64,000 nucleotides of DNA from a virus. The notes below the pieces were generated by a model. That model had not been told where the DNA came from and did not search any database. It was given only the letters and a program-made list of their open reading frames with translations. The DNA lies in IMG/VR virus record IMGVR_UViG_3300034073_004742, positions 5,074-69,073 of that record; one strand, given 5' to 3'. Every line of letters begins with the position of its first letter. Position 1 is the stretch's first letter. The position numbers were made by a program, and so were the translations under genes. Shown in pieces: positions 8,987-41,250 of this stretch.

Positions 8987-9328
8987 TTAAGTCCATTTCG
9001 TTTTTGGTGGTTTTTTTATTCTATTCATACCTTTTGGTAAAACATTATCATTTGTTGATTTATATGAATTATGTTTTGAATAAAGAGTTTGTTTTTGGTC
9101 ATCGCTCAGTCTGTCTCTATTCCTATTAGCTAAATCCCCGATGGTTTTTAGTTCACTATCATGTTTTTTAATAGATCCTTGAATGCTTGATACATCATCA
9201 GCATAACTTCTTTCTGTTTGTTTACTATTACACAAACTACATTTTGGAGAAGCTATATAGTCTTTAATATAAAAAAATAGTTCAAATTTTTTGGAACAGG
9301 AGTTGCATATGTATGTGTAGGTCGGCAT
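8987..9328 (-). CDS. FmdB-family Zn-ribbon protein
   Basis: MPTYTYICNSC...FE...CSLC. Confidence 0.8.
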   Translation of the reverse strand: MPTYTYICNSCSKKFELFFYIKDYIASPKCSLCNSKQTERSYADDVSSIQGSIKKHDSELKTIGDLANRNRDRLSDDQKQTLYSKHNSYKSTNDNVLPKGMNRIKKPPKTKWT

Positions 9329-9331
9329 GAT

Positions 9332-11031: not shown

Positions 11032-11074
11032 GTTATGCCCTTTATAATAAGTTATATATTAATAACGACATATT

Positions 11075-11085
11075 AATATACACCA
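11075..11085 (-). promoter_or_regulatory. Recurrent promoter-like motif TGGTGTATATT
   Basis: 44 nt upstream of phoH. Confidence 0.6.
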
Positions 11086-11089
11086 TATA

Positions 11090-11455
11090 TCATATTACAA
11101 ACGACTTAAGATCAGGAGCTTTCCATCCTTCTGGTTTTAGTACTTTGCCGTCTTCTCTCTTTTTTACTTTTCCTGTAACAGGATCCACTTTAGCAAAATT
11201 CGTTTTCATCACCTCGTCCCATGCTCCTTGGGCATTACTACCAGTGCTATTTATAGCACCTGCCGTAACCACAATAATATCTATTAAGGCATCTAGTATT
11301 TCTACTCTATCTATATTGTTGATAGCCTCCTGAAGCTCCGACACTTCTTCTTTTATAAGAGTGTGATACATATCAAATTGAGATTGATTCCACTCGCATA
11401 CTGTTTGATCACAGGCTACCATAAACTTGGTTTGGTCTTCAAACACATTACCCAT
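11090..11455 (-). CDS. MazG-like all-alpha NTP pyrophosphohydrolase
   Basis: LIKEEVSEL, EILDALIDIIVV, EVMKTNFAK, KREDGKVLKPEGW. Confidence 0.8.
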   Translation of the reverse strand: MGNVFEDQTKFMVACDQTVCEWNQSQFDMYHTLIKEEVSELQEAINNIDRVEILDALIDIIVVTAGAINSTGSNAQGAWDEVMKTNFAKVDPVTGKVKKREDGKVLKPEGWKAPDLKSFVI

Positions 11456-11473
11456 AATTTAATATCCTTTATA

Positions 11474-13126
11474 TTAAGATTCACAGTTTGTACAAGCTAA
11501 AATATTACGTGCTAATTCTTGTGCTGGATTAGCACTTCGTTGATAATAAAAGGTTTTGATTCCTAATTTCCATCCTTCTATGAGAAGATCGCTTACTTGT
11601 TTTGGCGGTATGTCTGGTCCAATCATTAAATTCAAAGATTGAGACTGATCTATATGTTTCTGTCTTTGAGATGCTTGAATAATAATTTCTTTCTGACTAA
11701 TTTCACCAAATGTTTTAAATACTTCTTTTTCATTATCAGATAAGAACTTTAGATGTTGAACAGAGCCTCCTTTAACCAAGATACTCTTCCAAACTGTTTC
11801 ATCGTTTTTATTATATTTTTTGAGAATTTCTTTTAGATGAGGGTTCTTATATGTGAATTTTCCTTTTGCTAAATTCTTAACAAAATAATTACTATTCAAT
11901 GGTTCTATGCTAGGACTTACTTGCCCCAATATAAAACTACTACTAGTTGTAGGAGCAATGGCTAATGTTGTGACGTTTCTACGACCATATCCTTCGAGGA
12001 TAGGAGCTTCTCCGAATTTTTCTGCTAATTCTCTTGATGCTTTGTCTGATCGTTCTCTAATAGTTTGCCATATATTAGCATTAATTAGTTTAGCTTGCAT
12101 ACTTTCAAAACTTATCATTTTGCTTTGAAGATACGAATGCCATCCCAATACTCCCATGCCTAATGCTCTATGATTTAGAGCAAAGTTTCTGGCGCTCTTC
12201 ATAAAACGAATATTTTCTGTTTTGTTTACAAACTCTTGATTAACACTGTCTAAGAAATATATAAGAGTTTCTATTGCATCTGTTTGTATTATTTCGTCCC
12301 AATGAAGCAGATTAAGAGAGCTTAGAACACAAACAAAACTATTATTTTCGTCTGATGCTAAACTAATTTCTGAACATAGATTACTACTATTTATTTTTAT
12401 ATTCTTGTCTTTATAAGCTTGTGGGGCGTTATTATTTACAGTATCATAAAAGAATATGTATGGATATCCACTTTCAAATCGTTTTTGAATAATTTTAGCC
12501 CAAATTTTTCTTTTATGTTTGTCTCCTTCAACCATGCTATTCATCCATTCATCAGTAATGGTAACGCCAATACTCATATTTTGAATAGGATGGCCTTCAT
12601 TACGAATTTGTAAAAACTCTTCTATATCAGGATGTTCTACGGGTAAATATGCTGCAAAACTTCCTCTTCGTGCTGATCCTTGACTAATCACATCTGCTAC
12701 TTTATCAAACAACTCCATAAAGTGAACAGGGCCGCTACTTTCTCCACCAACACTAATACTTGCGCCTCGTGATCTTAATTCACCAAAATAACCACTAGTG
12801 CCACCCCCTAATTTGCTCATCATACCAACTTCGGCCACTTTATAAAGAATACTATCCATCCTATCGCTAATGTGAGAATTAAAGCAACTAACTGGTAATC
12901 CTCGGGAGTTGCCGTAATTGGTCCAAACGGGAGTGGATAATGAGTAATATCCTAAACTCATATAACGTTCAAATTTTTCTGCAAAACCCGGGATGTTTAA
13001 TAGTCTCTCAGAGTTTTGCGATATGCTTTTTATTCTATCTTCTGGAGAAACGCCTTGTTCAAGGTATCCTCTTTCTAAGAATAAGCGACTATGCGAATTA
13101 AGCCAATAGTACGGTTGCGTTGTCAT
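11474..13126 (-). CDS. nrdA: Ribonucleotide reductase class Ia alpha subunit (no ATP cone)
   Basis: PVSCF, SSNLCSEI, VCVLSSLN, IAPTTSSS, KTFYYQR, C-terminal CTNC. Confidence 0.95.
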   Translation of the reverse strand: MTTQPYYWLNSHSRLFLERGYLEQGVSPEDRIKSISQNSERLLNIPGFAEKFERYMSLGYYSLSTPVWTNYGNSRGLPVSCFNSHISDRMDSILYKVAEVGMMSKLGGGTSGYFGELRSRGASISVGGESSGPVHFMELFDKVADVISQGSARRGSFAAYLPVEHPDIEEFLQIRNEGHPIQNMSIGVTITDEWMNSMVEGDKHKRKIWAKIIQKRFESGYPYIFFYDTVNNNAPQAYKDKNIKINSSNLCSEISLASDENNSFVCVLSSLNLLHWDEIIQTDAIETLIYFLDSVNQEFVNKTENIRFMKSARNFALNHRALGMGVLGWHSYLQSKMISFESMQAKLINANIWQTIRERSDKASRELAEKFGEAPILEGYGRRNVTTLAIAPTTSSSFILGQVSPSIEPLNSNYFVKNLAKGKFTYKNPHLKEILKKYNKNDETVWKSILVKGGSVQHLKFLSDNEKEVFKTFGEISQKEIIIQASQRQKHIDQSQSLNLMIGPDIPPKQVSDLLIEGWKLGIKTFYYQRSANPAQELARNILACTNCES

Positions 13127-13154
13127 TTAAAGTCCTATAAACCATTAATAATGA

Positions 13155-14126
13155 TTAAAACAAAGCCTCTATATCAAACGATAGGGCTTTCTTAGAGTAT
13201 TCTACGGGGCGAGAATGAAAGAAATCGGTCATATTGTTACCAAGAATTTGTTCATCAAACCACAGTGTTTTTGATAACAATTTTTGATCAATATCGAATA
13301 CCGGTTCGTATCCTATTTGATCTAATGATTCGTTTAGTCTGTTTTTAATAAATTCTTTAAGAAGATCGGAGTTTAAGTTTTCTTCTGCATAGCCATTAAC
13401 AATCCAGTCAATTATTTCACATTCGTATCTAACTGATTCTTTAGACTCGTGAATAATCTTATCTTCTAGTTCTTTATCGAACAGTTCTGGATATTCTTGT
13501 TTGATGGTATTGATTATTTTAATACCTATCATAGCATGAAGATTCTCTTCTCTGCTAGTATATTCAACTTGTTTATTTGTGTCTTTAAGCAAATTCAAGA
13601 ATCTGCCAAAATAACTAATAGTATAAAATTGAGAAAATAATGCTATGTTCTCAACAAATAGAGTAAATAGAATAAGAGAATAAATAAATTGTTTCTTATT
13701 GTCTTGATGAAATTTGTGCAAATGCTTACGAAGGTAATTTACTCTGCCTTTAATAATATCTAATTCTAGAATTTTTTCAAAGTTATCATCTATACCCAAA
13801 ACCTCCAAAAGTCTTTCGTAGGCATCTCCATGAATAACTTCCACATGAGCCATTGTGTAGCCTAAATCATTAAGAGAAGGATGAGGTAAATTATCACCAA
13901 GTTTGGCCCAAAATTTCTTTACACTAATTTCTAATTGACCAATGGTGGATAATGCTCTAATAATAATCTGTTTTTGTTGTTCTGTTAAATTTACTCTAAA
14001 ATCTTGAACATCGCTACTAAAATTAAATTCGCGATGAGTCCAGAACCCATTATGCATAGCTTCTATAAAGTCTTGGGTCCAAGGATAATTGTCGGGTTTT
14101 CTGGAAATTTGTTCGTCGAATATCAT
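13155..14126 (-). CDS. nrdB: Ribonucleotide reductase class Ia beta subunit
   Basis: FWTHRE, EVIHGDAY, FVENIALFSQF, REENLH. Confidence 0.95.
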   Translation of the reverse strand: MIFDEQISRKPDNYPWTQDFIEAMHNGFWTHREFNFSSDVQDFRVNLTEQQKQIIIRALSTIGQLEISVKKFWAKLGDNLPHPSLNDLGYTMAHVEVIHGDAYERLLEVLGIDDNFEKILELDIIKGRVNYLRKHLHKFHQDNKKQFIYSLILFTLFVENIALFSQFYTISYFGRFLNLLKDTNKQVEYTSREENLHAMIGIKIINTIKQEYPELFDKELEDKIIHESKESVRYECEIIDWIVNGYAEENLNSDLLKEFIKNRLNESLDQIGYEPVFDIDQKLLSKTLWFDEQILGNNMTDFFHSRPVEYSKKALSFDIEALF

Positions 14127-14272
14127 AATGGTTTTCTTTCTTTTTTTACTAAAATAGCAGCTAAACCTAATATTGTTAAAGTTGTAAATTCTTTGCCAAT
14201 AGGATTAAAGTTTTCTACTAGATATAGTTGTACGAAGTATATGATAGATAAAATATAAAATAGGGTAACCAT
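14123..14272 (-). CDS. Small membrane protein, 49 aa (not in ORF track)
   Basis: MVTLFYILSIIYFVQLYLVENFNPIGKEFTTLTILGLAAILVKKERKPL; TGATG overlap with the dCMP deaminase stop and ATGA overlap with the nrdB start. Confidence 0.65.
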   Translation of the reverse strand: MVTLFYILSIIYFVQLYLVENFNPIGKEFTTLTILGLAAILVKKERKPL

Positions 14273-14754
14273 CATATTACACCATTCAATTGTCTCAGCC
14301 ACTCAAGATTTGGATCTATATAAGAAATTTTCATACCGCTCATTTCAACGAACATATCGAATCTATTTTTTGCATCATTATCAAATAAAATTGTGCCATG
14401 ATCGTCTATCATATAAACTGTATCTATGCCCTCTTGGTGTAGAGCTATTATGCAATCATTACAGCATTGACCAGTAACATAAGCTGTGCCACCATCCGGC
14501 CTAACAACACAATTAGCGAGAGCATTTTTTTCGCTGTGTACCATCCAATGGTATTTTTCAGGTCTTGTTAGAGGCAATTGGCTATCATCCAACCCTTTGG
14601 GAAATCCATTGTATCCTACCCCGAGAATACGATTTTGTTTATCGGTTATGACACATCCGTGCTGGGTATGAATATCGTGGCTTCTTTGAGAAACCACTTT
14701 GGCTAACCCAAGAAAATAATCGGTCCATGACGGTCTGTTTTTTGATTGTATCAT
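14272..14754 (-). CDS. dCMP deaminase
   Basis: QHGCVI...GYNGFP, HSEKNAL, GQCCNDC. Confidence 0.9.
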   Translation of the reverse strand: MIQSKNRPSWTDYFLGLAKVVSQRSHDIHTQHGCVITDKQNRILGVGYNGFPKGLDDSQLPLTRPEKYHWMVHSEKNALANCVVRPDGGTAYVTGQCCNDCIIALHQEGIDTVYMIDDHGTILFDNDAKNRFDMFVEMSGMKISYIDPNLEWLRQLNGVI

Positions 14755-15710
14755 TCATGTATTATACTGTCATTCCTGATCGTGTCAACCCGTTTTTGTA
14801 TGATCGTGGCTTTGTCAACAAACTCATATTTTTGAATAGGATTTGGTAGCATATGATGCCATTTGATTGTGAAATTTGATTCTGATTCATCTAATATGTG
14901 GCCATAAACATTAAGATCTTCTTGTAAATAACAGTCATTATTATATAGTTTTACCATATGAAAATAATTATTTGGAGCTTTAGTGTTTAAAATTTTTATA
15001 CATTGTAGTTGAGGATAATAAAAATTAAGATGATTATATGGAATAATATAACCAAATATTCTTTCCAAAGAATGAGAATACGTTCCCAGCATTGATTCAT
15101 TTACTTTTTTAGTCTCTTGAGATAATAATTTCTGAAGTAAATGGTTGTAGGGTAGAAAATGCTGTTTAAATAACTCTGTTTTGCTCATAAACATATTACC
15201 ACCAAAAAAAGAATATTGATATATGTTAGAATATTGAATATTTAATATGTCACACAAATATAAAATTTTTTGATTATGATATAGTTCATTATTGCTAGAT
15301 AGTAAAAATTTATTACCAATAGCGCCACAGTTGCTATGATGTATTGTTTTATAGTTGTTATTAAAAATATCATTATCACCAAAAAAATCGTGTAATAAAA
15401 TGTGTCTCCAAGCAATTTGATTGTATTGTCCTAATAAGCTTTTTTTACTATGTAGTTTTATAAAATATGGTTCTTTAATTAATTCTAAAATATTGAGAAA
15501 AGGAGCAACATCTGCTCCATAATTATCACAAAATAAAATTGTTGTATCAAAATTTTTTTCTGCATTTTTTATAATATGTTTTTGAGATCCGTTATCGTTA
15601 TACAAACAGAGGTAGAGATGGATATGATCCTTAAAAGGAGATAATATCTGTAAAAAATTGTTCCATAAATCTAAATAATACAAAGATAAACTAATAGCTA
15701 ATTTATTCAT
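14751..15710 (-). CDS. RgpF-like (rhamnan synthesis F) glycosyltransferase
   Basis: NYGADVAPFL, FIKLHSKKS, FFGGNMF, SHSLERIFG; start taken at MNKLAI. Confidence 0.8.
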   Translation of the reverse strand: MNKLAISLSLYYLDLWNNFLQILSPFKDHIHLYLCLYNDNGSQKHIIKNAEKNFDTTILFCDNYGADVAPFLNILELIKEPYFIKLHSKKSLLGQYNQIAWRHILLHDFFGDNDIFNNNYKTIHHSNCGAIGNKFLLSSNNELYHNQKILYLCDILNIQYSNIYQYSFFGGNMFMSKTELFKQHFLPYNHLLQKLLSQETKKVNESMLGTYSHSLERIFGYIIPYNHLNFYYPQLQCIKILNTKAPNNYFHMVKLYNNDCYLQEDLNVYGHILDESESNFTIKWHHMLPNPIQKYEFVDKATIIQKRVDTIRNDSIIHE

Positions 15711-16395
15711 CTTGTATATTAGGATAAAAGTTTTGTAGCAAAAGAATTTCAAATTGAAGTAAGGATTTAAGATTTTGTAAAACTTTTTTGGATATATTTG
15801 CGTTATAATTATTAGTATTTACTCTTGATTCTTCCAAAATAAGACCGAATGGATTGTTATGATTCAATTCTGTAATTGATTCATTCATATAATCTGATTT
15901 TATAATAAAATTATATTTTGATAATTCTTCTATAGCGATATTATATTTTGTTTCTATATCTAAGTTTAGATGGCCATATTTAAAATATGTTAAGTAATCT
16001 ATGGTTATGTTACCGTATTCTTTAGTTTTTTCTTTTAGTATATTGTATGAACAGTATTCTGGATTTAATTTATCAAAAAAATACATATGGCTAATAAATC
16101 TTAATATAGGATGTCTAATACTAATAATCCTGAATGTTGAAGAAATATCTAAATTAAAAGTTTTTTCAAAAAAATATGCATAACTATGATCAGCAAATAA
16201 TTTTGTGTCATTATGAATAATGGGTATATATTGGTTATCTTTTTGTAAACATATATTATTGTGTGTAAATTCTGATATATATATTGGGGTTTGTGAGAAA
16301 TATGGGTTGGATAAACAAGCTTTATATAAGGATGTTTTAAAGCTACTTCCTCCACACTTTGGGATATGATTAAAAATTATTTTAGAAAATTTCAT
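15703..16395 (-). CDS. Sulfotransferase-family protein
   Basis: FNHIPKCGGSSF 5'-PSB-like motif and IRHPILRFIS 3'-PB-like motif. Confidence 0.75.
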   Translation of the reverse strand: MKFSKIIFNHIPKCGGSSFKTSLYKACLSNPYFSQTPIYISEFTHNNICLQKDNQYIPIIHNDTKLFADHSYAYFFEKTFNLDISSTFRIISIRHPILRFISHMYFFDKLNPEYCSYNILKEKTKEYGNITIDYLTYFKYGHLNLDIETKYNIAIEELSKYNFIIKSDYMNESITELNHNNPFGLILEESRVNTNNYNANISKKVLQNLKSLLQFEILLLQNFYPNIQDE

Positions 16396-17057
16396 AATAA
16401 ATACCCCATAGCGTTTTCTATTTTTATATCTAAATTTGATTTTATAATATCATATATTTCTTTTTTAATTTCATATTCTTGTTTTAAAAAATTATTTTTA
16501 ATATCTGTATATGGTTCAATATTTAATTTACTAGATATTATGTCTTGAATTTGTGATATATTGTTGCACAAGTCTTCGTATCTTATAAAGATATAATTTT
16601 GTGCAATTTTTGGAAGTTTATAAAGTAAATAATTATATTTTATATTTCTCATTTCAAAAATATTTTTATATCTATCTAAAGTATATATATTTCTTTCAAA
16701 AATAATTTCTTTTTCTAAACAAAGATTTCCATTTTCTGTTTCATATGAATATATGGGGTTTAATAAAAAATCTGTAATATTATTTTCAGTTTTCATATGA
16801 TATGGTTGTTTAAACATCGCGTGAATCCATTGAAATGGATCTCTAGTTATGCATATAAATAATGTGTTTTTCCCGCTAAGTATTATTTCTTTATTATGAA
16901 AACCAAAAAAATGTTTCCAGCCAAAAAAATATGTAACTGGTATATTATAATAATCAATAATAAGAGATTCTAAAAATTTTGTTCCGCAGTGTCTTTCTGC
17001 ATAAATAGTAAAATTATTTATTTGTGTATTCATATAATTTTTTATATGCGTAATCAT
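16392..17057 (-). CDS. Sulfotransferase-like protein
   Basis: AERHCGTKFL, GWKH, ITRDPFQWIHAM, IRYEDL. Confidence 0.65.
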   Translation of the reverse strand: MITHIKNYMNTQINNFTIYAERHCGTKFLESLIIDYYNIPVTYFFGWKHFFGFHNKEIILSGKNTLFICITRDPFQWIHAMFKQPYHMKTENNITDFLLNPIYSYETENGNLCLEKEIIFERNIYTLDRYKNIFEMRNIKYNYLLYKLPKIAQNYIFIRYEDLCNNISQIQDIISSKLNIEPYTDIKNNFLKQEYEIKKEIYDIIKSNLDIKIENAMGYLL

Positions 17058-17814
17058 GCATTTCTTGACTATGATAATAATTATTTATTATTTTATCTTT
17101 TATTTTGTATGGTAAACCGTCTGCACACACACATTCTACATAATTAGAACATAAATTACTCATAGATTTTATCATATCTCTATTTATAAAATGTGGAAAT
17201 CCACCCCAGTAACTTTTTATATCTGTATATAGTTCTTCATATTCCGGAGCTCTTGTAGATAAATACAATAAAATTTTATTAGTTTTTATGTTGTTAAATA
17301 ATATCTTCATTTCATTTAAATAATTTATTCTATTTTGTATTTTAATATTTTCAGCTAAATTTTTATCTTTTAATATTTCTTTATATATAGTTTCTGCCAT
17401 TTGAAATATAGAGTCAGAATTTTTATATCTAACCTGACCTTGATTTTTTCCTAACTCAAGTAAATCATTGTATATAGATCTACCAGAAAATATCTCAATT
17501 ATACAAAACTCTGCTTTATTTATAAAATCAAATATATGTTTATATTGATTAAAATATGATGGACCAGCGCCAGAAACTCCTAAATTAAATCCATTTATAC
17601 CAATAGTTTCTGATAACTGTTGAGTATATGGTCTTTGGCAATATCTACCAAATGTTCCAGCGGCACCTATTGACACAAAATATTTTTTATTAATATCAAT
17701 TGGTTTTGGTCCTCTAATGGCCCAATTTATTTTATCAAGCGTCCAAACTTGGTAATCTATAATATCTTTATCTTCTAGTTGATATCCTATATTGTGATTA
17801 ATTATATTATTCAT
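17014..17814 (-). CDS. DUF6473-like protein (SGNH-like, glycan-cluster associated)
   Basis: IGAAGTFGRYC..PY..L...NLGVSGAGPSYF. Confidence 0.55.
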   Translation of the reverse strand: MNNIINHNIGYQLEDKDIIDYQVWTLDKINWAIRGPKPIDINKKYFVSIGAAGTFGRYCQRPYTQQLSETIGINGFNLGVSGAGPSYFNQYKHIFDFINKAEFCIIEIFSGRSIYNDLLELGKNQGQVRYKNSDSIFQMAETIYKEILKDKNLAENIKIQNRINYLNEMKILFNNIKTNKILLYLSTRAPEYEELYTDIKSYWGGFPHFINRDMIKSMSNLCSNYVECVCADGLPYKIKDKIINNYYHSQEMHDYAYKKLYEYTNK

Positions 17815-17829
17815 AGAATAAATTCTTTA

Positions 17830-18159
17830 TTATAGTAGATATTGATAAATATAATCACTATGTTGAAAACACAAGTCTACTGTTTTTTTACACCCGACAT
17901 AAGGACCAACATTATTTTTTTCATAATATTTTATAATTTTTTTAAATTTATCAGAAGTGTAATTTTTGATGTAATTTATAAGATTCTTATTTTTTTCTAT
18001 CCAGTCGGGTCTATTGTAGAGTAAATTATCTGAAGAATCTACAAATAGAACTAATGTGTATTTATTAGCCCCATAGCATTGTTCCAATTTCCCTAACACT
18101 AATTGAAGTATTTCGAGTTTAACAAAACATTGTATTCCTATAACAAAATTATTTTTCAT
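17830..18159 (-). pseudogene. Truncated GT-A glycosyltransferase (N-terminal stub)
   Basis: LQLVLG...YTLVLFVD...CFQHSDYI resembles the last domain of the 978-aa neighbour but stops just before the expected EDD motif. Confidence 0.5.
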
Positions 18160-18173
18160 TGATTATAAACTTT

Positions 18174-21110
18174 CTATAATACATATTCTAGTTTAGTAAA
18201 ATTAATATTTGGATCAAAATCCCAAAAATAGTTTGGATTTTTATTGTGATTTAATTTGAGAAGTTTGTTTCCGGATAAGCAGCTATCTTTTAAGATAGTG
18301 TATAGTTGCTCATGTGTTAAGGGCTTATGAAATAGCGACTGTTGTCCTCTTTCATCTGCATGAATATCTGTTGCGCTCCATCCATAAATTCCTATGTGAG
18401 CGTGTCTATTCATTTCTGGCGCTATCGCTATAAGATTATGGGTATGTAGTATACGATTTATATCAAGATCTAATCCACATATTTCGTCTGATCTTATAGA
18501 ATCATAAAATGATTTAATATATTTATAAAACTTAAATCTGCTAATTACACAAGATCTTATAGATACATCGGATTTAACAATTTTATTTGGATTGCCTTTT
18601 GGTTTTTCCCAAGCGCCTATATGAAAATATAAGATATGGTCGTCTTTTCCAAGAGCTGCGTCGTGTAGTGCTAGTTCTTCGCACATTCTTAAATAATCTT
18701 TGCTAATTAATACATCATCTTCTCTAGTTATTACGTAATCATAATCGGTATTATCAAAAATATATTTAACACTATCATACCAACTATATTTACCACTATT
18801 TTTAGTCCAGTTTATTCTTTTATATTCGCTAGTAATTACCTTGTCGTAGTCTGATACTATACCATATTCTCTATGAGGATCAACAAAAATATACGTTTCA
18901 AAATTTTCAGAATTTTTAGCATTTTTTTGGTATTCTAAAGACAATTGTAACATAGCTGATCGGTCATAGTATGTGGGTATAACTATACATATTTTATCAT
19001 GGCAAGTATTGTTTTTTATATAGTTTTTTAATTGATTATTTTTTATAACATCTATAAATTTAAGTCTATTAATTTCTTGAAATCGCTTTGTTCCGTTCTC
19101 AATGTTCGTGCCAGCGCTAGATCCTTCGTTGTGAATAGCTATAGCTCTAGGTTCATATAAGGTATTTAAACCAAAGGAATGTCCTCTGTATTGTAATTCG
19201 CTATCCTCATAATACATAGGATAAAACGTAGTATTAAATACACCTATTTTATTTATGGTTTCTCTTTTGATTAATAAAAAACATCCGGAACAATATCCAA
19301 CATATTTAGGTATATTATATATGAGACTATTTGGATCATCATATCTTCCTATATTTCTACCAAATCCGTCTTCATACAATTCTGCCCCTGCTTCCGCTAA
19401 TCTTCCATCAGGAAAAATAGTTTTACCGCCAACAAAACCAATATCTCCGGAAGAATATGCGGATGATACCATATGCGATAGCCAATCTTCTGATACTATT
19501 TCAATATCATCGTTAATCAATACTACATCAGAATTTTTATATTTTATATCTAGCATTACTTTATTATTTGGAATAATAAAAAATTCATTACTTTTATTTT
19601 TAATATAAGTAACTTTATTTTCTATGTTATTTTCTTTTAAAAAATCTCCTATAGAATTTTCTATTTGCTGTGTTGTGCTATTATCTGTAACTACTATATG
19701 ATAATTTTTATAGCTTGTTTTTCTTATGATAGAAGATAGGCATTTGTATAGTCGTTCTTTGTTATTAAAAGCAACAATACTGATCACCATATGTTTATCT
19801 TCTAATGTATTTTTTAAAACATCAATACTTCTTTGTGTAGACACTATATTATGTATATGTTTTTGTCCTAAACTTGCTATTTTTTGTTGTTCATTGATGT
19901 TGTTTTTATAGAAAGCACATAAACTTTTAACAAAACTATCGTTACTAGTACAAATAAATCCATTTACAGAGTCAGTAAGATTTATGCCCTCATTACCTAT
20001 TGGCGACGTTATAATCGCTAGATTTGCCATAGCGGCATCGCATATTTTGCCTTTTATACCAGCACCCCAATTTAATGGGGCTAATAATACCGAACATTTT
20101 GAATATATACTGTCCAAATCAGGAACATGATCAGTAATAATTATCTGTTTATCATTATAAATATCAGAAGAAAAATTGATATTTTTACTATTAGGACCAA
20201 CAATAAATAATTTTGGTTTTTGGTAAATAATATTTTTGTATTCTTTAGTTTCTTGAAAATTTTTATATATTTGAACAGCTTGTTGTGCGGCATCTATATT
20301 TGGGCGATGATCATAACTACCAACAAATAAAATATTATATTCTATTTTTTTTATATTTTTAGGATCATGAATATTACTAAGAATTTTGATATTATTATTA
20401 TATCCTATTTCTTTTTGTAGAAATATTTTATCATCATTTGTAACAGTAAATATAACATTCGCTTTTTTATAAGTATTTATTTCTTTGTTTTTATTACTAT
20501 ATAATAGTTCGTCTGTGATATTTAATAATCCCGCATTTTTTCCTCTGTGTTCTCTAATCCAATGTATATCAACAGTATCAATAATAATTTTAATATTAGG
20601 ATAATAAGATTTTACAATATCAACATATTGATCTGCTATATCATACCAAGAAAATATTGCATTGTTATATATAACATTATTATCAACTGCTTTTTTTAGA
20701 TTTATATCAAAATATTTATCATTTTTTATATCTGGTAAATTAATTGTTATACCTAGTTGTTGTAATTTTTTAATATGATAATTTTTTTTATATCCATTAC
20801 AAAAAAAAGATACGTTATATTTCAAATATAATTTTAGAATTGTGAGTATTTGTAAAAGTCTATTACCTCCGCTGCTCATGTCGTAGTCTGGTGCGATTGG
20901 TGAAAAATAGAGCAGATTTTTTCCACTATTCCAAAATTCTGCATTATTTTTTGTTTTATAATCTATATAACGTCTATTTTGTTTGATTCCAAAATTTAGA
21001 TAGTGTTCTATACATGCTTTATCATTTGGTAATATTGATTGTATATCTTTGTTAATCTCAAAATATTTTTTAGGATTAAAGTTTATTGGTAACATGCTAT
21101 AGTTAGTCAT
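18174..21110 (-). CDS. Multidomain glycosyltransferase (GT-B/GT4-like + GT2 + GT-A)
   Basis: FVGSYDHRPNIDA, LAPLNWGAGIKGKI (GT-B); LINDDIE, GYCSGCF, YYEDSEL (GT2); ITREDDVL (third domain); N-terminal Y..N.DI...HY...G...R motif. Confidence 0.85.
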   Translation of the reverse strand: MTNYSMLPINFNPKKYFEINKDIQSILPNDKACIEHYLNFGIKQNRRYIDYKTKNNAEFWNSGKNLLYFSPIAPDYDMSSGGNRLLQILTILKLYLKYNVSFFCNGYKKNYHIKKLQQLGITINLPDIKNDKYFDINLKKAVDNNVIYNNAIFSWYDIADQYVDIVKSYYPNIKIIIDTVDIHWIREHRGKNAGLLNITDELLYSNKNKEINTYKKANVIFTVTNDDKIFLQKEIGYNNNIKILSNIHDPKNIKKIEYNILFVGSYDHRPNIDAAQQAVQIYKNFQETKEYKNIIYQKPKLFIVGPNSKNINFSSDIYNDKQIIITDHVPDLDSIYSKCSVLLAPLNWGAGIKGKICDAAMANLAIITSPIGNEGINLTDSVNGFICTSNDSFVKSLCAFYKNNINEQQKIASLGQKHIHNIVSTQRSIDVLKNTLEDKHMVISIVAFNNKERLYKCLSSIIRKTSYKNYHIVVTDNSTTQQIENSIGDFLKENNIENKVTYIKNKSNEFFIIPNNKVMLDIKYKNSDVVLINDDIEIVSEDWLSHMVSSAYSSGDIGFVGGKTIFPDGRLAEAGAELYEDGFGRNIGRYDDPNSLIYNIPKYVGYCSGCFLLIKRETINKIGVFNTTFYPMYYEDSELQYRGHSFGLNTLYEPRAIAIHNEGSSAGTNIENGTKRFQEINRLKFIDVIKNNQLKNYIKNNTCHDKICIVIPTYYDRSAMLQLSLEYQKNAKNSENFETYIFVDPHREYGIVSDYDKVITSEYKRINWTKNSGKYSWYDSVKYIFDNTDYDYVITREDDVLISKDYLRMCEELALHDAALGKDDHILYFHIGAWEKPKGNPNKIVKSDVSIRSCVISRFKFYKYIKSFYDSIRSDEICGLDLDINRILHTHNLIAIAPEMNRHAHIGIYGWSATDIHADERGQQSLFHKPLTHEQLYTILKDSCLSGNKLLKLNHNKNPNYFWDFDPNINFTKLEYVL

Positions 21111-24503: not shown

Positions 24504-25967
24504 TTAAGAACAACTATAGTTACTATTTATTGGTCCATTACCATTAACATCGGCAGTAACACATGTTGGATCGGTGTCACTTTGAGTGGCATAATTCCAG
24601 TATCCTGCGTTAGTACCGCGGCCTTTGTAATAAGCCGCTTTGTACCATTCATTTTCACTAGGAATAAAATAGTTAGCATTAACATTACGAGTAATACTCA
24701 CTCCAGAAGTTGCTCCATTTAGAGTATAAGCTCCGTCTTCGGTAGTAGTATTATCTTGGTTTCCAGAGGACTTACCATTATGTAACCAGTTGCAATATCT
24801 TGCACAATCAAACCAGCTAACATAAACTACGGGTTTGTTCCCCATATTGGTCTTAACGGTGTAGGTATAGCTTCCGCTAGAACCAGATCGAGTTATGCCG
24901 CCTCTAGCACCGCTATCCATATTTGTATTGTATAAATTGTAAGTATCAGTACTCGCTACTGCGTTAAGAAATTCCGCATACTCACAATTGGTAACATGAT
25001 ATTGAGCAATACTATACACATAGTTTACGATTCCATAACCAGTACTATCAGCACTATTATAAACATCACCAACACTAACAAAATATGAAAGAGATAAAGG
25101 GTTAAGGGAACTTGCAAGACGAAAACCGAGGTAGATGTTTTCAACCAACGGGAGGTCTGCGGCACTACTGGAGGACGACACGCTGGACGCGCTGGCGACC
25201 CCCCAGTTGCCGCCCCGAGCAACACGAGACGAGCCTGTAATAGCTTCGGTCCAATTCCACACATTTCCGCTCTGGTCATATGTTCCATAAGCACTTGGCC
25301 CGCCATTACTTCCAACGGTTGTAACATTACCATCTTGACCATTCCAATCAGCGCAAATGTTAAAATTAGCACTATTGGCCCCTATTGGAAAAGGCGGAAG
25401 TGTTGGCGTAGGGGTTATCGTTGTAGTAGGAGTTGGCGTAATGGTGTTGGTTGGCGTGTTAGTAGGCGTAATGGTGTTGGTTGGCGTGTTAGTAGGCGTA
25501 ATGGTGTTGGTTGGCGTAATGGTGTTGGTTGGCGTAATAGTATTGGTTGGCGTAATAGTGTTGGTAGGTGTAATAGTTGAGGTCACTGTATTTGTTGGAG
25601 TAACGCTATTTGTTGGAGTAGGAGTATTCGTCTCGGTAGTAGTTGGTGTTGCTGTAGGTGTTGATGTAGCCGTATTAGTCGGAGTAACTGTTGGTGTAGC
25701 CGTATTAGTCGGAGTAACTGTTGGTGTAGCCGTATTAGTCGGAGTAACTGTTGGTGTAGCCGTATTAGTCGGAGTAACTGTTGGTGTTGTTGTTGGAGTA
25801 ATACTACTGGTAGGAGTAACGGTGTTTGTTGGAGATACCGATGGCGTAACCGACGTTGTCGGGGTAATAGTTGGAGTTGTGCTATTTGTCGGAGTTATAC
25901 TCGGCGTGATCGTCGGCGTGGGGGAAGGTATGATAGGACAACATTTAATATTAACAATATTTTTCAT
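24504..25967 (-). CDS. Pro/Thr stalk plus circularly permuted FGE/C-lectin domain; candidate DGR target
   Basis: [10 protein letters not shown]...RGGNW...GFRLAS precedes [16 protein letters not shown] and [12 protein letters not shown]. Confidence 0.85.
25119..25226 (-). other. Putative DGR variable repeat (GC-rich, NNC-rich patch)
   Basis: 68/108 G+C; 17 of the 29 codons from GGC GGC to CTC end in C; spans RGGNW to GFR. Confidence 0.55.
25665..25784. repeat. Four exact 30-bp tandem repeats encoding ([10 protein letters not shown])4 within a larger PT tract (about 25380-25930)
   Basis: tgtagccgtattagtcggagtaactgttgg x4. Confidence 0.95.
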
Positions 25968-30422: not shown

Positions 30423-31826
30423 TTATGTAAAGTAAAGTATTACTGCTCCTGTTTCTCTAGTTTCATTTGTACCGTATCCATTACCGCCACCTATACCACC
30501 AGAAATAAATCCTCCTACTTTATTAAAATAGCTACCAGCACCAAATACATTTGGATTACTAGGATTAATATTTTCTATATTTGTGGTTGGGTCTATTCCT
30601 AATAGATTTAATACGGCAAATAGACCATCTACATCTGTTGCTTTAAATACTATATGTCCTCCAATATTTTGTGAGGTATTTCCACCAACCGCCCCCGCAG
30701 ACCAAACTCCGTTACCCAAATATTGTGTTGATCCTCCTATAGCTCCACCGTCTCCGCCAGAAAATTCTCCACCGTTAAATTTGAGAGTTCCATTGCTTGC
30801 TCTACCGCCACCAAATCCAGTAATAGTCGTTCCATTATATGTTACTGTTGTATTATTACCGGGCGCATCAAAATTGGTATTACTAACAGCAGCACCAACT
30901 GTATAAGCTACAGAAGAGCCACTATTAACATTCCAAGTTTTATATGCTGTTCCACCAGCGGATCTTTGATAATTTCCACCACTTCCAATAGCCCATGCTT
31001 TCATAGTGGTGGCACCAGTTGGTACTGTATATGAAGAACCCGTTGTTAGCACGACTGCCATTGGTGAAAATTGTGTCGCAGTGGTGGGTGTTGTCGTTGG
31101 TGTTGCTGTTGTTGTTGGGGTTGTTGTTGCTGTTGTTGGGGTTGTTGTTGGAGTTTCTGTTGGTGTTGTTGTGGGTGTTGTTGTGGTGGTTATGCTTGCT
31201 ATTGATAATATCGCTGTAGCGGTGGGGTTCTGCCCATATGGACCTTCATCTTTCATCCAGCGAACGACAAGATGCTCGCCCTCAGTCACAGAGGCAGTGC
31301 CGGTCAGCGTACTACCACCAATGGCGCTATTAGATATCGCAGTGCCGCCAGAGATAGTGGAGCTGCTTGACCATTCATGCTGACTAGGTGTTCCAGCATG
31401 ACGAAACAGTCTTGCTTCGCCCTGATAACCGCTGCCAGAAAGCGATATAGACCATGATAACGTTCCAGTCTGGTTGACCAACAGCCATACGCGATGATCC
31501 TCGTCATCTGTTGCAGCATTTCCGCCCCCTACAGTGACCGTCATCGGACTGCCAGACGTTCCCTGACCAGACACGCTGTACTGATCTGGGAATGGATTTA
31601 CGTTGTCAGCAGATGCCTTGTAATAATTAGAAAATGATAAATTGTTTTGTGCTGCTGGAGTAGCCGTGGGCGTAAGAGTGGTCGTTGTGGTTGGAGTTGG
31701 TGTAGGCGCAATCGTTGTGGTTTGACTCGGAGTTGGTGTGGGCGTAATAGATTCCTCTGATTTTCTAACCTTGATAGATCCATTACTATTTAATGCTTTA
31801 TTTAAATTAATTTTAAAAACAGTCAT
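30423..31826 (-). CDS. Modular Pro/Thr-linker protein with Gly-rich C-terminal domain (tail fibre/adhesin-like)
   Basis: Two Thr/Pro tracts flanking a GC-rich beta-rich module; LTTGSSYTVPTGATTMKAWAIGSGG Gly-rich domain. Confidence 0.7.
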   Translation of the reverse strand: MTVFKINLNKALNSNGSIKVRKSEESITPTPTPSQTTTIAPTPTPTTTTTLTPTATPAAQNNLSFSNYYKASADNVNPFPDQYSVSGQGTSGSPMTVTVGGGNAATDDEDHRVWLLVNQTGTLSWSISLSGSGYQGEARLFRHAGTPSQHEWSSSSTISGGTAISNSAIGGSTLTGTASVTEGEHLVVRWMKDEGPYGQNPTATAILSIASITTTTTPTTTPTETPTTTPTTATTTPTTTATPTTTPTTATQFSPMAVVLTTGSSYTVPTGATTMKAWAIGSGGNYQRSAGGTAYKTWNVNSGSSVAYTVGAAVSNTNFDAPGNNTTVTYNGTTITGFGGGRASNGTLKFNGGEFSGGDGGAIGGSTQYLGNGVWSAGAVGGNTSQNIGGHIVFKATDVDGLFAVLNLLGIDPTTNIENINPSNPNVFGAGSYFNKVGGFISGGIGGGNGYGTNETRETGAVILYFT

Positions 31827-33759: not shown

Positions 33760-36700
33760 TTATGTTGTAATTATTCTTTCTGTCCAAGAAATTCCACTAT
33801 CAGTACTGGTATAAATATGTCCGACATATACAGTGGAAACTAGTTTGGTTCCATCGGCACTACTAGTAATACGATACCAGTTTCGATTATTTTCTCTCGC
33901 TATCCAAGACACCCCACTATCAATACTTGTATAAATTTGTCCATTTTCTACAACAGCAGCAAGTTTAGTTCCATCACTACTACTGGTTATATCTATCCAT
34001 TGTCTTTGTCCTGATGCAAATCGTGCAATCCAAGTTGCGCCACTATCGGAACTAGTATAAATATATCCATTATATACAGTTGCTGCTAATTTAGTTCCAT
34101 CACTGCTGCTGGTTATAGCAGTCCAAGCATGAACCATATTAGAAATAGATCTGACTGTCCAATTTACTCCGCTATCAGAACTAGTGTAAATATCTCCATT
34201 ATTAATTGATACTGCTAATTTTACACCATCACTACTACTAGTAACTCTAATTAAACCAGCAGAAATTGTGGTTATTCTGTTCGTCCAATTAGCTCCACTA
34301 TCAATACTAGTCGAGACTCCACCGCTATTACTTGCAACTAGCTTAACCCCATTAGAATTACTAGCTATATCAATCCAAAATATATAATTATTATTTTTTA
34401 GTGTCCAATTGATTCCACTATCGGAACTAGTATAAACATCACCATTACCTATAATTGCTACAAGATTATTTCCATCGTCACTACTAGCAATAGCTTTCCA
34501 TTGTCGATTACTTTGTGTTGCTAGTCTTGCTATCCAGTTGGTCCCACTGTCACTACTTGTATAAATTTGTCCATTCCAAGCAACAGCAGCAAGTTTAGTT
34601 CCATCACTACTACTGGTAATATCGCTCCATGGTTTGCTATAGTTTGTTGGAGTAACTGTTGGCGTGACTGTTGGTGTAGTGTTTGGTGTTGTCGCGGGAG
34701 TAGATGTTAGCGTAATAGTTGGCGTTGGAGTAGTTGTTTGGGTTACTGTATTTGTGGGAGTAACTGTTGGTGTTACTGTTGGAGTAAGAGTATTAGTCTG
34801 GGTGGTTGTTGGTGTAACTGTGTTAGATGGAGTAACTGTTGGAGACACTGTTGGTGTTGCCGTATTGGTAGGAGTAACTGTCGGTGTTACTGTGTTCGAT
34901 GTAGTAACAGCTGGTGTTGCTGTAACTGTTGGCGTTGTCGTATTGGATGGAGTAACTGTTGGGGTTACAGTATTACTCGGAGTAACTGTTGGGGTTGCAG
35001 TATTACTCGGAGTAACTGTTGGGGTTGCAGTATTACTCGGAGTAACTGTTGGGGTCGCAGTATTACTCGGAGTAACTGTTGGAGTAACTGTGTTGGATGG
35101 AGACACCGTCGGCGTTACTGTTGGAGTAACTGTGTTAGATGGAGACACCGTTGGCGTTGCTGTTGGAGTAATACTACTTGTAGGAGTAACTGTCGAAGTG
35201 GCTGTTGGTGTGGTGGTTGGTGTTGTTGTTGGAGTAGATGTTGGCGTAATAGTTGGTGTTGGAGTAGGCTTGGGAGTATTTAGTATAATTTTAATAGATT
35301 GATTTTTAATATCACAATAATTATTTTTAATATGAGGATTATAAGAATTTATAGTTGGTTGAATATATGATTGATTATTACTAATAATTTTAATATGATT
35401 GCTACAAGAGATGTTATTGGATTGTACAACGTGAGGATTAATATGATTAATAGTTGGTGGAGTATACAGCATATTATTTCCAATAATTTTTATAGAAGAG
35501 TTATTTGAACATTGTTTTTGATATGTTATTGGTTCAACATAAGGATTGTCGCATCCGTAGCATCTAGACTCTTTTGTTGATGCTTTGATAGTGCTTCCAT
35601 TGGAACTAGCACAATTACCATAAATTATTATTTGATATTTATCAGTATAAAAATTAGTTATTTCAATAGGATCGAATGTGATATTTGTAGAATTAATAAC
35701 GCAATTATTTTTTTCAACATATTCTTCTACACATATATAATAACAGCATTCTCCAACACAAGACGATGGAAGCGGCGTAGATGCTGGTGTTGGCGTTGGC
35801 GTGAGTGTGGGAGTTGCTGATGGTGGTGGTCGCGGACTTGGGGACGAAGATGGTAATGGCGGAGACGGTGGACTCGGAGGACTAGGTGGCGATGGTGGAC
35901 TTGGTGGACTTGGTGGACTTGGAGGCGATGGAGGACTTGGTGGGCTTGGAGGTGATGGAGGACTTGGTGGCGATGGTGGACTCGGTGGACTTGGAGGTGA
36001 TGGTGGACTTGGTGGACTTGGTGGCGACGGAGGACTTGGCGGCGATGGTGGACTTGGTGGCGAAGGCGGCGATGGTGGACTTGGTGGCGAAGGCGGCGAT
36101 GGTGGACTTGGTGGCGAAGGCGGCGACGGTGGACTTGGAGGCGATGGTGGACTTGGTGGACTTGGTGGACTTGGTGGACTTGGCGGCGAAGGCGGACTTG
36201 GTGGACTTGGTGGCGACGGAGGACTTGGCGGCGAAGGCGGACTTGGTGGACTTGGTGGCGAAGGCGGCGATGGTGGACTTGGCGGCGATGGTGGACTTGG
36301 CGGTGAAGGAGGACTTGGTGGCGAAGGCGGCGATGGTGGACTCGGTGGACTCGGAGGACTAGGTGGCGACGGAGGACCGGGTGGCGGTGGCGGTGGTGGC
36401 GGCGAACAACCCTCGCTACTACAAGAAGGACACTGAGGACAAGCAGATGCTCCGCCGCCTTCTTCTATACATTGACCACACGTTGGACTAGAAGGATTGG
36501 TATCGCAAAATAGAAATTTAGTACAGCACGGATCTTGTTCTGGACAAGGATCCTCTGGTGTGCAGACTTTAACTAGGTTGTTCGGGCTGTTTGGGCAACA
36601 ACGACTCTCAGGATTTACTCCATCAGTTTCTTGATTAAAAATTATATTACAATCGTTTTCATCTTTACCCATATAACAACTACCTTGTACTAATCCTGTA

Positions 36701-38454: not shown

Positions 38455-41250
38455 TTAGCACCATTTAATACATTCGGTATAAGTATCACTATCTTCGTCA
38501 ATATCACATTTCATACACCTATCTCCAAAACTACAGCCAACACAAGATCCATCAACGCATTTTCTACATAATTTTTGACTACATTGATTAATACAAACAG
38601 CAGAACCTGGAAAAATTGATGAGCTACATATCTCACATTTTGTAGTGTCGCACTTTAGTACACACTCTCCATTTTGACACTCTTCGCATTTTTTAGGATC
38701 GCACTTAGTGACACATTGTCCATTTATACATACTTCACATTTATTTTTATCACATTTGTTAACACATCCACCTTTATTATCACACTCTTCGCATTTTTTA
38801 CTATCGCAATTGATTATACAATTACCTCTAGAGTCGCATGTTTCGCATTTAGCAGCGTCGCATTTTGCAACACATTTATTATTTTCGCACTTTTCACATA
38901 ATATGCTACAATTAGGTACACAATTTCCACGTTCGCATCTTTCGCATTCGTTACATTTTGATTCGCATTTTCCTTTTCCATCACATATTTCACAATTATT
39001 GCGATTACAAACAACAACACAACCGATTGGGCCACATACTTCACATTTGTCTGGATTACATATATATATACAGTTTTTATTTATACAACTTACGCAAGGA
39101 TTGTTTTTACATTGCGAAACACAATTTCCACCAATACATTCTTCACATAAAAATTCGTTACATGATGATTTACATACTCCTTGATCGCAATATTCACATT
39201 CTTTACAAGTAGACACACAATTTCCTTTGCCATCACATTGTAAACATTGTTTTGAGTCACATCCACCATCTACACATTGATTATTAACACAAATTTGACA
39301 GTCATTACATATGTTGGTACATTTTCCACTAAGATCACAATCCGAACAATCTCCACACTTAGGAACACACTCTCCTTTTGCATTATCGCATTTTAAACAC
39401 GGAGATGCTTCCGAACATGATTTATATCCCTTATCGGTACAAACCGTACATGGTGGACCTGATTCTACACAACTTCTACTACCATTTATCATTACACATT
39501 TTCTACCGGAACATTGTGGAGTAGAACATGGATCAACACACTTTCCATTTACACAATCTAAACAAGGATCATCACAAAAACATTTTTCGTCTTTACATTT
39601 GCAAGATCCACATTCACAACAAGGGTCTTTTACACATTTTCCATCTTCACAAATTTCGCATAATAATTCATTGCATGACGATTTACAATGTCCATTTTTA
39701 CATATTTCGCAATTATCTGGTTTACAAAATATTTTACAATCACCGAATTCTTTATCGCACTCTTCACATTGTTCGGCTCTGCAAGTATATACGCATCTTC
39801 CTTGACCATCACACTCTAAACATTTTTTTGGATCACATGATGATACACACTGTCCATTTTCACATATTTCGCAATTTAGATAATCACAACTATCTTTACA
39901 AAAAGATCCAGTACATCTCAAACAATTATTACTATCGCAACTATCTACACATTTTCCATTTTCACAGTCGTAGCAGCCGTTACATTTGGGTGTACACCAT
40001 CCACCAGAACAAATTTCACATTCATTGCATTGATTTTTACATACTCCGTTGTCACAAATTTCGCATTTACTTTTGTCACATTTAGAATAACATCTTCCAG
40101 ATAAACATTCTAAGCAGCTTTTGGGATCGCAAGGATCTACGCATTTAGAATTACCGTCACAAACTAAACATGAATTTTTACCACCACAAGCACTTACACA
40201 TTGGTCATTTTCGCACACCATACAATTTTTACCGTCACAACCATCCACGCACTGATCGTCGATACATCTTTGACAACCACTACACGAATTGTAACATGTG
40301 CCATCGCAACGCAAACAATTACCACTACATTTTGGAACACATTCACCTGTTTGATAATTACATACTAAACACGAAGACGCTTGAGAACATGGTAGATAAC
40401 CCTGTTGTGTACAAGCTCTACAAAATCCTCCATTATCAACACACGAAGGTTCTCCATCTACTAAAACACATTTTCTACCAGGACACTCTGGTGTAGTACA
40501 TCGATCAACACACTCTCCGTCTTTACAAACTTCACAAGCACTATCACAAACACATGTTTCGTTTTCGCATTTACAAGATCCACATTCGCAGCAAGGATCT
40601 TTTACACATTCACCGTCTTCGCAAATTTCACATTCTTTACAAATTGATTCACAAACATCTCCTGCGCAACGTTGACAATTTTCTTTCTTACAAGGATTAA
40701 TGCATTTACCATTTTCACAAACATTACATCCTTTACAGATTATACCACAACATTTATCTCTATTTCCACAACAAGGATCATTTGATCCGCAACATGGATC
40801 GGTGTTATTGCAGCATGGTCCACGACAATTTTTATATCCGCCGGGAGACGGCGGGCTTGGTGGACTTGGTGGACTAGGAGGAGACGGCGGGCTCGGAGGA
40901 GGCGGTGAAGGAGGAGGAGGTGGTGGTGGTGGTGGTGGTGGTGGTGGTGGTGGTGGTGGTGGTGGTGGTGGAGGTGGCGGGGGAGGAGGTGGAGGAGATG
41001 GCGGTGGCGGGGGTGGAGGCGAAGGAGGTGGCGACGATGAACATATTCCTCCATAAACCTGGCCATTTGTTGGGTTGGCTACTGGAGGAGGTGGACAAAA
41101 AGGTTCACATCCATCGGGACAAGGTATAGATATCATCCATGTACAAGATTGAGATCCATCATCATTGGCCACACAAACAGCAGTGTATTGACAGTCACAT
41201 CCTGGTGTGCTGGCTAGTGGTTCTATATTAAAAATATTTTTTATTTTCAT
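38455..41250 (-). CDS. 931-aa poly-Pro plus extremely Cys-rich repeat protein
   Basis: About 17-aa CxxC-x3/4-GxC-x3-C unit repeated for about 780 aa; internal duplication of the KDPCCECGSCKC block. Confidence 0.85.
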   Translation of the reverse strand: MKIKNIFNIEPLASTPGCDCQYTAVCVANDDGSQSCTWMISIPCPDGCEPFCPPPPVANPTNGQVYGGICSSSPPPSPPPPPPPSPPPPPPPPPPPPPPPPPPPPPPPPPPPPPSPPPPSPPSPPSPPSPPSPPSPGGYKNCRGPCCNNTDPCCGSNDPCCGNRDKCCGIICKGCNVCENGKCINPCKKENCQRCAGDVCESICKECEICEDGECVKDPCCECGSCKCENETCVCDSACEVCKDGECVDRCTTPECPGRKCVLVDGEPSCVDNGGFCRACTQQGYLPCSQASSCLVCNYQTGECVPKCSGNCLRCDGTCYNSCSGCQRCIDDQCVDGCDGKNCMVCENDQCVSACGGKNSCLVCDGNSKCVDPCDPKSCLECLSGRCYSKCDKSKCEICDNGVCKNQCNECEICSGGWCTPKCNGCYDCENGKCVDSCDSNNCLRCTGSFCKDSCDYLNCEICENGQCVSSCDPKKCLECDGQGRCVYTCRAEQCEECDKEFGDCKIFCKPDNCEICKNGHCKSSCNELLCEICEDGKCVKDPCCECGSCKCKDEKCFCDDPCLDCVNGKCVDPCSTPQCSGRKCVMINGSRSCVESGPPCTVCTDKGYKSCSEASPCLKCDNAKGECVPKCGDCSDCDLSGKCTNICNDCQICVNNQCVDGGCDSKQCLQCDGKGNCVSTCKECEYCDQGVCKSSCNEFLCEECIGGNCVSQCKNNPCVSCINKNCIYICNPDKCEVCGPIGCVVVCNRNNCEICDGKGKCESKCNECERCERGNCVPNCSILCEKCENNKCVAKCDAAKCETCDSRGNCIINCDSKKCEECDNKGGCVNKCDKNKCEVCINGQCVTKCDPKKCEECQNGECVLKCDTTKCEICSSSIFPGSAVCINQCSQKLCRKCVDGSCVGCSFGDRCMKCDIDEDSDTYTECIKWC
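40921..40971 (-). repeat. Pure (CCA)17 microsatellite within a poly-Pro run of more than 25 residues
   Basis: tgg x17 on the plus strand. Confidence 0.95.

Follow-up and report, generated by a model that had tools for sequence, protein, structure and literature searches.

A G+C-rich variable tract in a lectin-like gene of an AT-rich phage, probably derived from a retroelement on bacterial chromosomes

How does a phage genome with 31% G+C come to carry, in the middle of one gene, a short tract with 63% G+C? The question is raised by 64,000 nucleotides (nt) of viral DNA, positions 5,074 to 69,073 of the IMG/VR record IMGVR_UViG_3300034073_004742 (hereafter the window). The record itself (G000) is 77.7 kb long, ~47% complete and 31% G+C. 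An open reading frame (ORF) at 24504..25967 on the minus strand encodes, as judged from its translation, a stalked lectin-like protein of 487 amino acids (aa), P0001. Within this gene, positions 25119-25226 are 63.0% G+C, compared with a genome mean of 31.3% across all 108-nt windows (standard deviation 8.2%, z = 3.9). A first-pass annotation of this DNA had described a sharp 63% G+C patch in a low-GC gene, which these values confirm, and had read it as the variable repeat (VR) of a diversity-generating retroelement (DGR). We consider it likely that the patch is a DGR VR, derived from the template repeat (TR) of a retroelement that comprises bAvd, a reverse transcriptase (RT) and the TR, and that is located on G+C-rich bacterial chromosomes and not in the phage.

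Read on the minus strand, the patch encodes RVARGGNW...GFR. Third-position G+C is 0.76 in the RGG..GFR core and 0.27 in the remaining domain, and 52% of the third positions of the core are C; the far flanks of the tract have values of 0.30 and 0.15. The G+C anomaly of the patch sits at synonymous sites. Other stretches of the genome that exceed 55% G+C are Pro-, Thr- and Cys-rich repeat genes near 31200-31400, 35600-36200 and 40600-41000. The patch is shared by seven other IMG/VR phages, with a third-position G+C of 0.85-0.94 that drops to 0.24-0.39 in the remainder of the gene (0.15-0.48 in the flanks). A scaffold of codons is conserved at the DNA level among these seven orthologs, beginning with CGG GGC GGC .. 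TGG .. GCG .. TTG TCG TCC TCC and continuing with .. AGG .. ACG .. CCG TCG .. GAG .. GGT TTT CGT, and the variable codons between the scaffold codons are NNC. This combination of a scaffold with NNC codons is the outcome of an AAC-rich DGR template. An alignment of 18 homologs displays strong conservation throughout, except from RGG to GFR. The orthologs thus bear out two earlier expectations, namely that the codons follow an NNC rule and that hypervariability is found only within the patch, at codon positions 1-2. No such pattern is seen in other family members or in paralogs, and loci L002-4 and L018 are intermediate.

The TR was first predicted from the orthologous phage patches and then sought in metagenome contigs. 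When 24 nt of this prediction served as a probe, ten contigs of 63-67% G+C were recovered that contain exactly the predicted sequence, including the arms. The TR was also found in one GTDB genome and in further contigs reached via the RT, for a total of at least 20 contigs. All cassette contigs are 63-70% G+C and have bacterial neighbours. The order of the cassette is target, bAvd (PF22296, 3e-22), RT (PF00078/RVT_1, 1e-22) and TR, the last directly after the RT; bAvd and RT lie directly upstream of the TR on L122/L135, L163, L164 and L165. The cis target has a signal peptide, a contiguous FGE domain, a C-terminal VR and a PEP-CTERM anchor, and is homologous to the phage protein. One cassette contig falls within a Planctomycetota metagenome-assembled genome (MAG; G033), in which another PEP-CTERM protein also contains a matching VR. 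A 79.7-kb NCBI contig carries a 72%-identical RT with nearly the same TR between housekeeping genes, the cassette neighbours being genes for transketolase, AP endonuclease, an aminotransferase, LptF/G and carbamoyl-phosphate synthase. Named relatives of the RT belong to Sedimentisphaerales and Phycisphaerae, and RT relatives occur in 23 of the 301 Planctomycetota genomes sampled. The cassette probably sits on bacterial chromosomes of Planctomycetota, of a Phycisphaerae-like kind. A TR-like copy that differs mainly at template adenines, for which the first-pass annotation had suggested a search, does therefore exist, and it adjoins a DGR RT and bAvd. The annotation was also right to place TR and RT outside the window; it had not foreseen that they would lie on Planctomycetota-type DNA of 63-70% G+C and not in the phage lineage.

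Several features of these bacterial cassettes deserve mention in their own right. The same MAG harbours a second DGR (L129, G033:C343) with a different, classic TR (RGGSWNNTARNCRSANRNRNNPSNRNNNLGFR) directly after its RT. On L122, positions 2072-2215 and 5545-5688 form a 144-nt direct repeat, 99% identical, that begins ~230 nt past the TR. Beyond this repeat the contexts of the bacterial contigs diverge (PIN, AbiEii, or LssY_C plus aminotransferase), so that the cassette is either mobile itself or placed next to a dispersed repeat. In the cis VR of the chromosomal cassette, at L163:9214-9340, an in-frame TAG takes the place of the TCG of the TR, a substitution that does not fall on a template adenine; the target gene, as called, stops at this TAG, and this cis target may be inactivated. 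The cis VR at L165:952-1084 and the remote VR at L128:460-590 have one or two codons more than their TR, so differences in length between VR and TR do occur in this family of bAvd-RT-TR DGRs. P0023, P0036, P0037 and other PEP-CTERM homologs are 650-750 aa long and contain the unit of FGE domain, VR and PEP-CTERM twice in one called protein, which may reflect either a genuine repeat or the fusion of two neighbouring target genes during gene calling.

The alignment of the patch with the 127-nt TR covers TR positions 1-124. Its score is 141, the best local score of the paralog described below is 65, and shuffled templates score at most 55. Changes in the copy in the window are concentrated at template adenines, with substitutions at 18 of the 32 adenine sites, against 15 of the 92 remaining sites (Fisher p = 3.6e-5). 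The pattern is cleaner in related phages: adenine and other sites changed are 18/32 and 4/92 in L039, 17/32 and 6/92 in L006, and 14/32 and 6/92 in L020. The bacterial cis VRs of L118 and L117 have 19/32 and 22/32 adenine sites changed, with 4/95 and 2/95 other sites, respectively. Unrelated family members are changed at ~45-50% of adenine and other sites alike. Overall, the phage relatives have 4-7 non-adenine differences in 92 sites, akin to the bacterial cis VRs, and the match of the copy in the window is weaker (15/92).

By local alignment to the TR, the homologous tract, that is the VR with both arms, extends over 25111..25237 on the minus strand. Its mutagenised core, RGGNW...GFR, corresponds to residues 251-283 and occupies 25119..25217, as delimited by third-position G+C and by the NNC codons of the orthologs. 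The 5' arm at 25218..25237 (minus strand; GGC TCG TCT CGT GTT GCT) matches the non-mutated 5' end of the TR, although its codons GTT GCT have drifted from the GGG CTT of the TR. The 3' arm lies at 25111..25118 on the same strand (CTT GCA AG, then T). The claim that the patch spans exactly RGGNW...GFR is correct for the core; the relevant tract is longer, ~25111-25237, and adds both non-mutated TR arms. The 3' end is GCAAGT in phage copies and bacterial cis VRs alike and GCAAGC in the TR, which resembles the difference between the initiation of mutagenic homing sites IMH and IMH* of known DGRs. The TR itself varies, with CTT CGG, CTG CGG or CTC CGC in the 5' arm and AAC or ATC as the last variable codon, and phage VRs pair both of their ends with these variants. 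L020 has CTC CGC with ATC and L005 has CTG with ATC; L006, L038 and L039 would fit the variant with CTT CGG at the 5' end and AAC as the last codon. Since the combinations are matched at both ends of the tracts, whole tracts came from particular contemporary TR variants. If the template belongs to a genome of 63-66% G+C, this would explain why the patch is G+C-rich; the C at the end of its codons would stem from a template made up of AAC codons, in which reverse transcription randomises the adenines.

The position of the VR within the gene follows from the architecture of P0001. The protein matches PF03781 with E = 6.4e-19, and the match is split in two stretches. The half of the FGE/C-lectin domain that is normally C-terminal comes first here (residues 197-286; 25110..25379, minus strand) and holds the VR; BLASTP aligns it to residues 220-310 of a bacterial DGR target, L118:33-1055, with 54% identity (E = 1e-23). 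The half that is normally N-terminal comes second (residues 296-482; 24522..25082, minus strand), matches residues 32-218 of the same target with 51% identity (E = 4e-55) and corresponds to Pfam positions 37-130. On this sequence evidence the domain is a circular permutant of the PF03781 family and not a standard member, its two halves being swapped. The VR is internal in P0001 because of this permutation, by which a normally C-terminal VR comes first. It does lie ~600 nt before the stop codon, as had been remarked, but what had seemed an unusual location is accounted for by the permutation and is not a new placement within the fold. The assignment of the VR to an FGE/C-lectin fold is likewise supported, in that alignment pairs the region, within PF03781, with the VR of the bacterial cis target. 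A predicted structure of the permuted domain (18-row alignment) had a mean predicted local distance difference test (pLDDT) score of 39 and was unusable. P0001 has more than 7000 homologs, many on large phage contigs, and relatives of its domain are common in large (100-230 kb) AT-rich IMG/VR contigs and in Planctomycetota PEP-CTERM proteins. DGR targets with an FGE fold are regarded as binding proteins (PMC5758913), and P0001 is probably a virion adhesin or receptor-binding protein. Its paralog P0002 (21801..23378, minus strand) has the same permutation and serves as an internal control: the segment equivalent to the VR is AT-rich, as had been reported, and in local alignment it is without likeness to the TR.

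Residues 1-194 of P0001 form a Thr/Pro-rich repeat stalk (25386..25967, minus strand), recognized from the translation and from tandem repeats in the DNA. Near-perfect tandem repeats, for example GGCGTAATGGTGTTGGTT units, occupy 25400-25900, and contigs from all four runs compared display skips and back-joints there. The length of the stalk probably differs between phage populations.

Comparison of the tract with its surroundings gives an indication of its age. Phage and bacterial target DNA just upstream of the tract are 58-67% identical; at non-adenine TR sites the identity is 84% (the copy in the window) to 96%. The G+C anomaly starts at the 5' end of the TR, with a third-position G+C of 0.00 at codon -8 and of 0.88 at codons -6 and -5. 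Codons -6 to -1 are conserved in DNA across eight phages, and the 3' arm marks the other limit of the third-position anomaly. In six of the eight phages the limits of the G+C-rich tract coincide exactly with those of the TR. Had the tract persisted since the gene was first captured, it would have drifted along with the gene, and hence it must have been renewed after the gene became phage-like. The tract is younger than the gene and was renewed long after the gene turned AT-rich.

The copy in the window does not look fresh. As read from the alignment, 10 of its 15 non-adenine differences are GC to AT, and third-position G+C of its core is 0.76, against ~0.9 in the relatives. Either it was rewritten in the past and then drifted toward A+T, or its own template variant is unsampled. 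The phage is present in four subsurface-metagenome runs of one study, and in the run compared (X1) the contig has the same VR sequence throughout. In lake runs, the flanks of related phages align at 85-95%, with no alignment over 25010-25211, and a related contig in run X8 skips exactly 25126-25223; these population comparisons rest on assembled contigs. Near-identical proteins with differing VRs amount to two pairs at >=90% flank identity in the clustered database. The first-pass annotation had proposed an active or recently active VR. The present copy gives no sign of activity: it is changed at 16% of non-adenine sites, mostly from GC to AT, is identical in the one run compared and belongs to a group in which VRs are static within most 90% protein clusters. 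The codons that do not fit an AAC template, given at the time as a caveat, are indeed present, and we ascribe them to later GC-to-AT drift.

How might a bacterial template have reached the phage gene? The phage would infect bacteria that carry the DGR, and within the infected cell the host retroelement, acting in trans, would write the tract into phage DNA. The phages would keep a short landing pad in the permuted lectin domain, consisting of the TR arms and the VR-type 3' end. In this way AT-rich phages without an RT of their own could borrow a host hypermutation machine to vary an adhesin. There is a laboratory precedent in the BPP-1 system, where a phage lacking avd, TR and brt was rewritten in trans by plasmid-borne avd-TR-brt, even within a single lytic cycle, and where the homology needed for retrohoming is short, >=8 bp (Guo et al. 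2011, PMC3240598). We favour this route because homology on the 3' side is ~18 nt, the flanks are too diverged, the tract ends at the limits of the TR, and the laboratory precedent exists. Our rough probability that a Planctomycetota chromosomal DGR rewrites the binding domain of large AT-rich phages in trans during infection is 0.45, and writing in trans, which we prefer to recombination with a host VR, takes close to half of the total.

A number of observations weigh against this proposal. The phage genome is only about half sequenced, so the absence of a cassette, described below, holds for the sequenced part. A sample with both phage and cassette was not found; there was no overlap among the top 20 matches listed, which comprise near-identical sequence only. 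A phage of 31% G+C on a host of 65% G+C is an unusual pairing. A conserved hairpin is predicted neither after the phage VRs nor after the bacterial VRs. The copy in the window has one codon more than every TR found, along with its 15 non-adenine differences, which may mean that the tract is old or that its own template is a variant missing from the sample. Across samples, VRs are identical within most 90% protein clusters. Finally, L008 and L038 have three codons resembling the bacterial flank upstream of the TR boundary, which would fit recombination.

The last two points bear on the alternative that survives best, which we regard as less likely: a finished tract, made by the DGR in a bacterial target gene, would have passed to the phage homolog of that gene through recombination or gene conversion in the infected cell, possibly with the aid of UvsX. 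The phage protein is clearly homologous to the bacterial cis target, the phage encodes a UvsX-like recombinase, and phage VRs have the VR-type GCAAGT end. L008 and L038 have the codons GGT/GGC GCT GCC in common with the bacterial flank just upstream of the TR boundary, and VRs that are static within phage clusters are what rare events would give. However, in the bacterial VR-bearing proteins examined, including all five cis VRs read in DNA, PEP-CTERM coding sequence without a phage counterpart comes after the VR. Homology is therefore ~18 nt on the 3' side, with ~30 nt on the 5' side, and the flanking DNA has just the low identity given above. Arms this short suit retrohoming, which needs >=8 bp (PMC3240598), better than RecA-type exchange, and the exact stop at the TR ends in six of eight phages also argues against recombination.

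A second alternative places the machinery in the phage, which would have, or would very recently have had, its own cassette in the unsequenced half of the genome; the patch would then be an ordinary non-adjacent target of a phage DGR. The incompleteness of the record allows for this, phage DGR targets up to ~50 kb from the RT are known (PMC5758913), and DGR regions often break assemblies, as the short cassette contigs illustrate. The searches make it quite improbable. PF00078 gave no match in the contig itself and none in 28 related phage records, 12 of which are >=90% complete; the same search found an RT in four of four unrelated viral records with classic TRs. Genomes G004, G005 and G015, which have TR-type VRs and are estimated to be 100% complete, are without RT, bAvd or TR. 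A regular-expression search for RT motifs in six-frame ORFs recovered nothing RT-like, and the bacterial RT protein matches phages only through its TR-encoded tail, that is, through the VR. The bAvd family PF22296 was not found in the phage records searched; it was used because an earlier Avd probe, PF05635, which had found nothing, matches this bAvd weakly (E = 0.007). Searches with the patch and the inferred TR against G000, G004 and G015, by megablast-type and word-7 blastn, returned the VR itself alone. Two checks that the first-pass annotation had proposed were accordingly negative for the phage: blastn of G000 gave no near-copy of the patch elsewhere in the genome, and neither RT nor Avd is present in the 77.7-kb contig, which includes 30 kb and 47 kb on the two sides of the gene. 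Among the 2.9 million IMG/VR contigs, none contains the TR 27-mer or a close relative of the RT. Every cassette contig is of 63-70% G+C with bacterial neighbours and none is joined to AT-rich phage DNA. Neither the contig nor the 28 relatives combine TR, RT and VR within one genome.

Other scans of viral sequence gave few matches. A scaffold-pattern scan of viral contigs recovered two known VRs only. The 5' TR piece CGGGGCGGCAACTGGAACAAC identified four TRs of unrelated classic phage DGRs, the records that served as positive controls. A TR candidate in L017, from a self-search of 77 loci, was rejected, as it is itself a VR, that of a second domain encoded by the 1790-aa ORF concerned, and its mismatches are not confined to adenines.

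The weakest alternative, that the patch is a non-DGR feature (a recombination tract from some G+C-rich donor, or the composition of a Ser/Ala/Gly-rich loop under diversifying selection), could draw on the Ser/Ala-rich loop of this copy, on its several codons off NNC and on the other G+C-rich stretches of the genome that arise from amino-acid composition, but we consider it highly improbable given an anomaly at synonymous sites, an alignment along a whole real TR with adenine-specific differences, a textbook DGR pattern in the orthologs, and off-pattern codons that are explained by later drift (10/15 changes GC to AT).

Writing in trans from a bacterial chromosome, if it occurs here, has partial parallels in known systems. 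The system of Bordetella phage BPP-1 (mtd VR, avd, TR, brt; PMC3240598) is alike in its adenine-specific transfer from TR to VR, in a phage binding protein with a C-lectin fold, in an AAC-rich template that gives NNC codons, in non-mutated arms and in a difference between VR and TR at the 3' end. It is unlike the present case in several respects: here the phage lineage is without RT, Avd and TR, and the cassette is chromosomal in a bacterium and has its own cis target. The cassette order is also different, target-avd-RT-TR here and target-avd-TR-RT in BPP-1. Furthermore, no hairpin is seen here after the phage VR, and the VR lies in mid-gene through the permutation of the domain. The cellular DGR of Treponema denticola, with TvpA and seven dispersed targets (category 'b', PMC5758913), is alike in its FGE-type C-lectin and in a VR over RGGxW...GFR. 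As in that system, one TR serves targets away from the cassette, and MAG G033 has such a target. The known remote targets are in the same genome, whereas here the target would be on a different replicon, of very different composition, in a large phage of virulent type.

The usual view is that a DGR operates inside a single genome, and surveys seek targets that adjoin the RT or are in the same assembly (PMC8144416, PMC5758913). Wu et al. (2018) did not expect remote targets for phages (PMC5758913), and such targets were not detectable in the survey of Roux et al. (PMC8144416). No report of a natural pairing between a host TR and a phage VR was found in full-text literature searches. The present case would be new in that the DGR target is part of a permuted domain and belongs to a different replicon from the template, which is owned by Planctomycetota. 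If the template of a phage target does sit in a bacterial chromosome, DGR target counts are underestimated, and viruses can use, or be marked by, a host hypermutation system. Matches between TR and VR would also constitute a sequence-based link between host and virus for uncultured pairs, in this case joining large freshwater and subsurface phages with Planctomycetota. To our knowledge, few Planctomycetota phages have been described. Rewriting in trans, if true, would be a natural instance of cross-genome mutagenic retrohoming. More generally, a compositional island of ~100 nt can record transfer between genomes. The system is directly testable, since both the cassette (~2 kb) and the target are fully sequenced.

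The remainder of the window is that of a large tailed phage, as it encodes a UvsX-like recombinase, a DnaB-like helicase, a primase, PhoH, ribonucleotide reductase and a terminase-like protein. The UvsX-like recombinase is encoded at 6506-7519 on the minus strand (phrog_97, 2e-37), near the DnaB-like helicase and the primase, and could matter for the integration of short homologous DNA or complementary DNA. Genes for permuted lectins can be numerous in such phages. L021 (IMGVR_UViG_3300009180_000021), a 152-kb phage, has at least seven permuted-lectin paralogs within 17 kb (3000-19700), none of which has a TR-type patch. In two other loci, L008:10001-12335 and L022:10001-12004, a copy of the gene whose TR-type VR is fresh adjoins one whose VR has faded, with third-position G+C of 0.85-0.88 and 0.39-0.67, respectively. 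This suggests that in phages with two adjacent copies, one copy alone gets renewed.

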